IMG/VR virus record: IMGVR_UViG_2859777919_000008
Length of the DNA stretch: 22,920 nucleotides
Direction: 5' to 3' (one strand)
DNA from: a virus
Lineage: Duplodnaviria; Heunggongvirae; Uroviricota; Caudoviricetes
Shown here: one piece after another, positions 8,903 through 10,453 of the stretch
How positions within the stretch are numbered: position 1 is the first letter of the stretch
How the letters are laid out: the number at the start of each line of letters is the position of its first letter
Position numbers and translations under genes: made by a program
The notes under the pieces: generated by a model
Seen by the model: only the letters and a program-made list of their open reading frames with translations
What the model was told of the DNA's origin: nothing
The model's database searches: none

Positions 8903-9015
8903 TATTCACCTCTCGCAGCCTTACTAGACTGGCCCCCTGAATCTCCAGACAACCAGTATCACTTAAATAAGTGATAGTCTTAATACTAGTTTTTAGACTA
9001 GTCATTGGAGTACAG

Positions 9016-9381
9016 ATGATTGATGTCTTAGGGCCGGAGAAACGCAGACGGCGTACCACACAGGAAAAGATCGCAATTGTTCAGCAGAGCTTTGAACCGG
9101 GGATGACGGTCTCCCTCGTTGCCCGGCAACATGGTGTAGCAGCCAGCCAGTTATTTCTCTGGCGTAAGCAATACCAGGAAGGAAGTCTTACTGCTGTCGC
9201 CGCCGGAGAACAGGTTGTTCCTGCCTCTGAACTTGCTGCCGCCATGAAGCAGATTAAAGAACTCCAGCGCCTGCTCGGCAAGAAAACGATGGAAAATGAA
9301 CTCCTCAAAGAAGCCGTTGAATATGGACGGGCAAAAAAGTGGATAGCGCACGCGCCCTTATTGCCCGGGGATGGGGAGTAA
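9016..9381 (+). CDS. insC: IS2 InsC (OrfA)
   Basis: [56 protein letters not shown]..., recognisable as IS2 OrfA; the ORF track starts 15 codons earlier. Confidence 0.9.
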
Positions 9382-10244
9382 GCTTAGTCAGCCGTTGTCT
9401 CCGGGTGTCGCGTGCGCAGTTGCACGTCATTCTCAGACGAACCGATGACTGGATGGATGGCCGCCGCAGTCGTCACACTGATGATACGGATGTGCTTCTC
9501 CGTATACACCATGTTATCGGAGAGCTGCCCACGTATGGTTATCGTCGGGTATGGGCGCTGCTTCGCAGACAGGCAGAACTTGATGGTATGCCTGCGATCA
9601 ATGCCAAACGTGTTTACCGGATCATGCGCCAGAATGCGCTGTTGCTTGAGCGAAAACCTGCTGTACCGCCATCGAAACGGGCACATACAGGCAGAGTGGC
9701 CGTGAAAGAAAGCAATCAGCGATGGTGCTCTGACGGGTTCGAGTTCTGCTGTGATAACGGAGAGAGACTGCGTGTCACGTTCGCGCTGGACTGCTGTGAT
9801 CGTGAGGCACTGCACTGGGCGGTGACTACCGGCGGCTTCAACAGTGAAACAGTACAGGACGTCATGCTGGGAGCGGTGGAACGCCGCTTCGGCAACGATC
9901 TTCCGTCGTCTCCAGTGGAGTGGCTGACGGATAATGGTTCATGCTACCGGGCTAATGAAACACGCCAGTTCGCCCGGATGTTGGGACTTGAACCGAAGAA
10001 CACGGCGGTGCGGAGTCCGGAGAGTAACGGAATAGCAGAGAGCTTCGTGAAAACGATAAAGCGTGACTACATCAGTATCATGCCCAAACCAGACGGGTTA
10101 ACGGCAGCAAAGAACCTTGCAGAGGCGTTCGAGCATTATAACGAATGGCATCCGCATAGTGCGCTGGGTTATCGCTCGCCACGGGAATATCTGCGGCAGC
10201 GGGCTTGTAATGGGTTAAGTGATAACAGATGTCTGGAAATATAG
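9339..10244 (+). CDS. insD: IS2 InsD (OrfB, DDE transposase domain)
   Basis: 301 aa ORF overlapping insC in the -1 frame, recognisable as IS2 OrfB. Confidence 0.9.
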
Positions 10245-10453
10245 GGGCAAATCCACTTACGCTTATCTTCTCTTATTTTGAAATACAGATTCGTCAGATA
10301 AGTCAGAAGCCCCAGAAGCAGACTTCCCAGCACACCAATCGCAGCCCACTGTGATGGACTGACCTGATCCAACCACTGCAAAAACCAGTAGCCGGCACTG
10401 CCGGCGGAGGTGCCGTAGGCAATGCCTGTTGATATTTTTTCCATCTGATACAT
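10169..10453 (-). CDS. lambda S-like class I holin, C-terminus replaced by IS2-derived sequence
   Basis: [66 protein letters not shown] is native holin (10256-10453); the next 28 codons run into IS2. Across the insertion the original frame continues as AARGE-stop at 8903-8919, overlapping the endolysin ATG. Confidence 0.8.

Follow-up and report, generated by a model that had tools for sequence, protein, structure and literature searches.

An IS2 insertion in the pinholin gene of a Shigella sonnei lambdoid prophage and its probably silent lysis cassette

The lysis genes of the Shigella sonnei lambdoid prophage analysed here (a stretch of 22,920 nucleotides, called "the window" throughout) are interrupted by an insertion sequence, and this raises the question of whether the cassette can still function and, if not, which of its lesions is responsible. 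An earlier reading of the DNA, made from the letters alone (the sequence-only reading), had placed the damage in the insertion itself. We consider it very probable that IS2 transposed into codons 65–66 of a pinholin gene, that the cassette is now orphaned and silent, and that the whole is a case of ordinary IS-driven prophage decay. IS2 entered the sequence GTAAG at codons 65–66 of the 71-codon gene, duplicating 5 bp, exchanging the last five holin residues for 28 others and shifting the endolysin gene to 1336 bp from the holin stop codon. ISEc20 was inserted later, 10 bp before the holin start, and an IS600-associated inversion, later too, removed gene Q and the late promoter; the cassette, bracketed by IS elements, would now be transcriptionally orphaned. 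The holin with its recoded tail would still be pore-competent, and the intact endolysin and spanin genes would persist as unexpressed remnants.

The IS2 element and its target site

A complete IS2 of 1331 bp occupies bp 8925–10255 on the plus strand, as judged by its termini, length, open reading frames and identity to annotated copies; from end to end it shares 99.9% identity with copies that carry the annotation "IS3-like element IS2". Its left inverted repeat (IRL) begins at bp 8925 with TAGACTGGCCCCC, and its right inverted repeat (IRR) finishes at bp 10255 with GGGGCAAATCCA; when the two termini are compared, IRL reads TAGACTGGCCCCCTGAATCTCCAGACA and the reverse complement of IRR reads TGGATTTGCCCCTATATTTCCAGACA. 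The plus strand carries orfA (9016–9381, with an HTH_Tnp_1 match) and the orfB frame (9339–10244, with rve and rve_3 matches), which overlaps orfA in a different frame, and the A6G (AAAAAAG) −1 frameshift site lies at 9333–9339; these transposase genes are antisense to the lysis genes. The features that mark membership in IS2 are present, namely the size of ∼1.33 kb, the terminal inverted repeats, the overlapping orfA and orfB with their A6G site, and a 5 bp target duplication. IS2 is known to have imperfect terminal inverted repeats of 41 and 42 bp and to transpose by way of a figure-of-eight and a minicircle intermediate (PMC3299598).

The duplicated target is CTTAC, with its left copy at bp 8920–8924 and its right copy at bp 10256–10260; on the coding strand the latter reads GTAAG and belongs to holin codons R65 and K66. 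A 5 bp match is expected by chance about once in 1024, and the decisive evidence is an alignment to an empty site. Escherichia coli FDAARGOS_944 (locus L001) aligns with window bp 5405–8924 at 99.7% identity and with bp 10256–10463 at 100%, and the two alignments share exactly 5 bp, the CTTAC, which occurs there only once. When the site is reconstructed without IS2, it aligns with the intact cassettes of E. coli genomes unbroken across the junction, at 99.6% identity. The sequence-only reading had reported this duplication at these positions and had proposed a simple IS2 insertion; both stand, given a full-length 1331 bp element, the 5 bp duplication, and flanks that are contiguous in the intact homolog.

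The holin gene and its IS2-encoded tail

Comparison with intact homologous cassettes had been suggested as a check, and it bears the reading out: deletion in silico of IS2 and one copy of CTTAC gives a 71-amino-acid holin ending in AARGE that is identical to the L001 holin. The present holin ORF runs from bp 10453 to 10169 on the minus strand and encodes 94 amino acids (91 from Met4). Its residues 1–66 (...KIREDKRK; 10453–10256) are native, and they are followed by 28 IS2-encoded residues and a stop codon (10255–10169), just as had been read. The orphaned native 3′ end lies on the other side of IS2 at bp 8902–8919 on the minus strand (AARGE at 8919–8905 and TAA at 8904–8902), where it also holds the endolysin ribosome-binding site; the native TAA and the endolysin ATG (8902–8900) share base 8902. 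The original AARGE-stop and its overlap with the endolysin start had been recognized correctly, but its position was put at 8903–8919, one base short of the actual 8902–8919. The present ORF no longer ends in the charged tail ...RKAARGE of the 71-residue protein, whereas the reconstructed gene does, and the tail as a whole changes from 13 residues with a net charge of +3 in the native protein to 36 residues with a net charge of +8 in the chimera. A hydropathy profile gives the chimeric holin a strong segment at about residues 37–51 and a weak, Gly/Ala-rich first segment, and it shows no extra (third) hydrophobic segment in the IS2-encoded tail.

The holin matches the family PF04971 ("Bacteriophage P21 holin S") at 118 bits against a cut-off of 26 (E = 1.7e-34), with holin residues 5–66 covering profile positions 1–62 of 64. 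This is the sole family that it matches, and the λ S holin family is not matched; by its family match the protein is a phage 21 class II pinholin and not a holin of the λ S type. P21-type holins release SAR endolysins through small depolarizing pores. As in phage 21, the gene has a double start at Met1 and Met4, but the extension is MYQ (bp 10445–10453) in place of the MKS of phage 21, and the L001 allele is the same in this respect. An N-terminus of MYQM, where phage 21 has MKSM, leaves the longer product without a lysine in its three-residue extension; this lysine is credited with the antiholin character of S21-71.

The lysis cassette of phage 21 (S21 pinholin/antiholin, R21, and Rz/Rz1) is a close parallel in gene order and in the overlap of holin stop and endolysin ATG, the latter in the reconstructed site, and at the DNA level the cassette, once reconstructed, shows 91.5% identity to it. 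In the phage 21 record the genes bear the annotations antiholin/pinholin S21-71/68, SAR endolysin and spanins, and the ribosome-binding site of the endolysin is placed inside the holin 3′ end. Unlike that of phage 21, the window holin lacks AARGE and carries the 28 IS2 residues, the leader and ribosome-binding site sequences differ, and no pR′, Q gene or tRNA region lies upstream of the cassette. The prophage genes annotated essD-rrrD in complete E. coli genomes and locus L001 likewise pair a P21-type holin with a SAR lysozyme in a chromosomal prophage, as here. Outside the IS elements L001 is 99.7–100% identical to the window, the DedA-family and terminase genes included, whereas its cassette is free of IS elements and has four tRNA genes and a DUF1133 gene (a Q-type antiterminator) upstream of the holin gene.

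The endolysin and spanin genes

The SAR endolysin gene, of the R21/RrrD type, is intact (bp 8405–8902 on the minus strand; 165 amino acids; PF00959 at E = 1.1e-43). Its product matches the structures 4ZPU (RrrD; E = 2.9e-104) and 3HDE (E = 2.1e-103) over residues 1–165, has a Gly/Ala-rich N-terminal signal-anchor-release segment at residues 8–26, and carries E35, D44 and T50, residues with an established catalytic role. The gene retains 22 nt of native upstream sequence that includes its ribosome-binding site. It now lies 1336 bp from the holin gene, in agreement with the separation of about 1.3 kb noted earlier, and the overlap of stop and ATG is lost.

The Rz i-spanin gene lies at bp 7938–8408 on the minus strand (PF03245), following the 156-amino-acid gene call on near-identical S. 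sonnei loci (such as L017); mechanically, the ORF extends to bp 8420 from a GTG start and would encode 160 amino acids. An Rz1-like ORF is embedded in it at bp 7982–8188. The holin core, endolysin, Rz and Rz1-like genes are all open reading frames. A DedA/VTT-domain membrane protein is encoded in the other direction in the interval from Rz to the terminase genes (7337–7849, plus strand); since the intact E. coli prophage L001 has this gene as well, it resembles moron-type cargo.

Lesions upstream of the holin gene

A second element, the 1449 bp ISEc20 of the IS110 family, lies at bp 10464–11912 on the plus strand (DEDD_Tnp_IS110 and Transposase_20 matches), on the upstream side of the holin ATG and only 10 bp from it. 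The breakpoints of ISEc20 are defined against L001, to which homology ends at bp 10463 and restarts at bp 11913. It is 99.9% identical to annotated ISEc20 over 1449 of 1450 bp, and its transposase gene is frameshifted by a 1 bp deletion (a C after IS position 768). The left flank is similar in five unrelated ISEc20 copies (that of the window and those of L013–L016), with a C-rich end followed by GTTAC, and in three of the five the motif is CCCGCCCC; this suggests that ISEc20 targeting may be sequence-specific. The G-rich stretch just before the holin ATG (target flank 10452–10463) matches this flank motif. A scan of bp 8300–12600 against Rfam, with E values up to 1, found no curated RNA, ISEc20-associated or other, and the non-coding left end of ISEc20 was unmatched.

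Upstream of ISEc20 a 540 bp remnant of the late-operon leader survives (bp 11913–12452, minus strand; L001 3720–4258), with a terminator-like hairpin at 11973–11947. The leader is cut at bp 12453 by an IS911-like element of the IS3 family, recognized by its IS911-like orfA; in the early region orfB of the IS911-like element is split. The early region that follows (12453–22920) is inverted relative to the late genes. It contains genes for a cI-like repressor (14776–15183), a DnaC/IstB-like protein (18024–18770), DUF977, QueH (19769–20455) and the nin-region protein DUF1367 (21372–21767), the last truncated at bp 21720 by an IS600-like copy. IS600-like copies lie at about 13693–14340 (partial), 16076–17341 and 21720–22920. 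No tRNA gene and no Q-like ORF were found in the window, where the intact L001 locus has four tRNA genes and DUF1133 upstream of its holin gene; DUF1133 is a Q-type antiterminator family, which in the S. sonnei locus L021 also matches PF06530 (Phage_antitermQ). The Q antiterminator, YbcO and tRNA genes, present in L001 and L021, are missing from the window, and the IS600-associated inversion removed the Q antiterminator and the late promoter from this locus. The morphogenesis genes of the prophage are also decaying: the portal gene (3558–5024) is fragmented, with a 360-amino-acid ORF whose match to the Pfam portal profile does not start until position 84, and the gene calls in near-identical S. 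sonnei loci split it into pieces of 58, 54 and 360 amino acids.

What probably silences the cassette

Gene order, on which this reading is based, indicates that the cassette is probably silent, mainly because no pR′ or Q gene is nearby, because the holin gene has three IS elements within it or on its upstream side, and because no consensus promoter points toward the lysis genes. A σ70 scan found nothing promoter-like that points from IS2 to the endolysin gene or from ISEc20 to the holin gene; the scan recognizes σ70 consensus sites, and weak outward promoters in either element could escape it. A terminator scan of IS2 on the strand of the lysis genes found no intrinsic terminator; the results of both scans are weak evidence either way. 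The polarity of IS2 insertions on downstream genes is known from classical work. The present insertion resembles the classical polar ones (gal::IS2, for example) in that IS2 lies inside an operon, where it parts co-transcribed genes, and is flanked by a 5 bp duplication, and by this analogy, from which we infer polarity here, it is plausible that IS2 is polar on the endolysin gene.

The sequence-only reading had held the cassette to be "probably disarmed" by the recoded C-terminal tail of its holin and the broken coupling of holin to endolysin. The outcome is likely as stated, but the cause would lie mainly in lost transcription, and we regard it as unlikely that tail and coupling themselves disarm the cassette. 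In λ S the charge of the cytoplasmic tail tunes lysis timing, and the tail is indeed recoded here, longer and more basic, with the stop/ATG overlap gone. The analogy fails in the class of holin, however, which is the class II P21 type of PF04971, and in this type the C-terminus tolerates truncation. In phage 21 S21-68, C-terminal truncation was found to be "largely dispensable for assembly" until K56 (K59 in the 71-residue numbering), the last 12 residues were dispensable for pore formation, and working C-terminal fusions have been built (bioRxiv 10.1101/2021.04.20.440580); these data come from a reporter assay with another allele that is without the 28-residue basic extension. Since the chimera is native to K66 and S21-68 tolerates the loss of its last 12 residues, it is unlikely that the loss of five is what disables the cassette. 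Even with its recoded tail the holin is probably pore-competent; by this comparison the tail is unlikely to be disabling alone, and an effect of the tail on timing or stability is possible. Against a failure of coupling, the endolysin gene keeps its own ribosome-binding site within its 22 nt native leader, and far larger lesions are at hand in the ISEc20 at −10, the IS911-like element, and the loss of Q and pR′.

It is considerably less probable still that the chimeric holin and downstream genes continue to be expressed, from an outward promoter borne by an IS element or by read-through, and have been retained in a domesticated role. The open reading frames of the holin core, endolysin, Rz and Rz1-like genes would fit such retention, as would the conservation of the chimeric ORF in many S. 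sonnei assemblies; S. sonnei is a young clone, however, and for this reason that conservation says little. Some IS3-family elements do have outward promoters (PMC12095673), but the right end of IS2 was chosen in that same study for having no detectable promoter activity, and the scan described above found no promoter-like site out of IS2 or ISEc20 toward the lysis genes. The rest of the prophage, with its fragmented portal gene and multiple IS copies, is decaying as well. Loss of transcription to a cassette already interrupted by IS2 is accordingly the explanation that we prefer.

Occurrence in Shigella sonnei and order of events

Public databases list the exact 94-residue chimeric holin under the name "lysis protein S [Shigella sonnei]", and it is also annotated as a class II holin. 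Its 91-residue Met4 form occurs in 234 assembly-index blocks, of which 18 hold contigs larger than 1 Mb, complete chromosomes among them, and the S. sonnei locus L017 is 99.975% identical to the window over 20,276 bp. The occurrence of the same chimeric holin across many S. sonnei assemblies shows that the insertion is real and widespread and is not an artefact. Although short-read assemblies can break or mis-join at IS2 (locus L003 and the variants P0004, P0006 and P0009 carry odd tails), an assembly artefact or a recombination between two IS2 copies is extremely improbable here and was rejected on the empty site in L001 and on the independent assemblies, since the same 5 bp duplication lies on both sides of IS2, the flanks are contiguous in the intact homolog, and several independent assemblies, including contigs of 4.8–5.0 Mb, have the same structure.

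One of the loci with an odd tail, the draft contig L003 (GCA_001253355.1, 1962 bp), has the chimeric holin and a partial IS2 joined to leader sequence, followed by an intact 71-residue holin gene and a lysozyme gene that are 98–99% identical; either the contig is mis-joined at the IS element, or this S. sonnei strain has another P21-type cassette that is intact. In complete E. coli genomes the same IS2-endolysin or IS2-holin junction was not found; apparent full-coverage matches there proved to be IS2 or IS2-like elements elsewhere, either upstream of essD (strains 042 and ET490) or inside rrrD (2018-01-1CC). Exact and degenerate junction scans of a species-representative genome collection gave no match, a result with no bearing on rarity.

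The order of events can be read from L021, in which IS2 and the IS911-like insertion are as in the window, ISEc20 is absent, and the genes DUF1367, YbcO and Q are co-directional upstream of the holin gene. Because L021 has IS2 and has neither ISEc20 nor the inversion, IS2 came earlier than both ISEc20 and the IS600-bounded inversion. On these sequence comparisons IS2 and the IS911-like element were first, and ISEc20 and the IS600-bounded inversion followed in the lineage of the window; a relative order of IS events is in this way obtained for one S. sonnei locus. An annotation variant of the chimeric holin of 111 amino acids, whose N-terminal extension reads through the native leader, supports the same order. 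The IS2 insertion is old in S. sonnei. In strains of the L021 type a Q-modified polymerase might read through the IS elements, and the cassette there might be less dead than that of the window.

Shigella chromosomes carry 229–348 IS copies, with IS1, IS2, IS4, IS600 and IS911 expanded, and ISEc20 is among the elements of S. sonnei 53G (Hawkey et al. 2020, PMC7373316). With so many copies, an IS2 in a pinholin gene is ordinary prophage decay. The window, taken with its near-identical S. sonnei loci, matches the IS-driven decay described in that study in the types of element (IS2, IS600, IS911, ISEc20 and IS1), in their high density, in gene interruption and in IS-bounded inversion, and nothing material differs. 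No discussion of this insertion was found in the literature searched. The case is visible in many public genomes, and it has little significance beyond annotation. There its consequence is practical: in many S. sonnei genomes the proteins of 91 or 94 amino acids that go by the names "class II holin family protein" and "lysis protein S" are IS2 fusions of a 71-residue pinholin, encoded by a dead prophage, and their entries should be marked as disrupted.

Repeated IS2 insertion at the pinholin 3′ end

When proteins were searched with the native holin, further holin alleles came up whose tails are read from the IS2 IRR (WICPYISRH...), and junction loci were taken from the DNA of those holins and from matches to a degenerate junction pattern. 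Counted from the S. sonnei site, the junction falls on the same nucleotide in L024 (4151–4337; 0 nt), which has a different allele and prophage context, at −3 nt in L025 (4151–4336), where the element is an IS2 variant, at +1 nt in L026 (28–81), and at −13 nt in L030 (12110–12149). Together with that of S. sonnei there are at least five apparently independent IS2 insertions, at −13, −3, 0, 0 and +1 nt, a spread of 14 nt, in differing holin alleles and prophage settings, and in each the IRR adjoins the holin gene. In a simple simulation such clustering has a chance probability of p ∼0.05 within the 31 nt search range and of ∼1e-4 over the whole gene, and the detection of junctions is itself biased toward the orientation with IRR next to the holin gene. 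A scan of viral contigs for the opposite orientation, with the holin 3′ end beside IRL, gave only a chance match that is not a holin, and the IRR-holin junction at this place was found in none of 5,426 complete E. coli genomes. The proposal that the 3′ end of P21-type pinholin genes is a preferred IS2 landing site, always with IRR beside the holin gene, and that the cassette is repeatedly disabled in this way, is one that we make tentatively and would put at somewhat below even chances. If true, it would add a little to what is known of IS2 target preferences, which are poorly defined, and would identify one route by which lysogens lose prophage lysis.

A related element lies at the same holin/endolysin boundary in E. 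coli RM10740 (L009 2795–4130). This IS2-like element is 1336 bp long, shares ∼69% identity with IS2 along most of that length, and has one junction 1 nt away from the S. sonnei site. A 15 bp direct duplication (ATTCACCTCTCGCAG) flanks the element, where 5 bp is usual, and the holin is extended by it to 84 amino acids.
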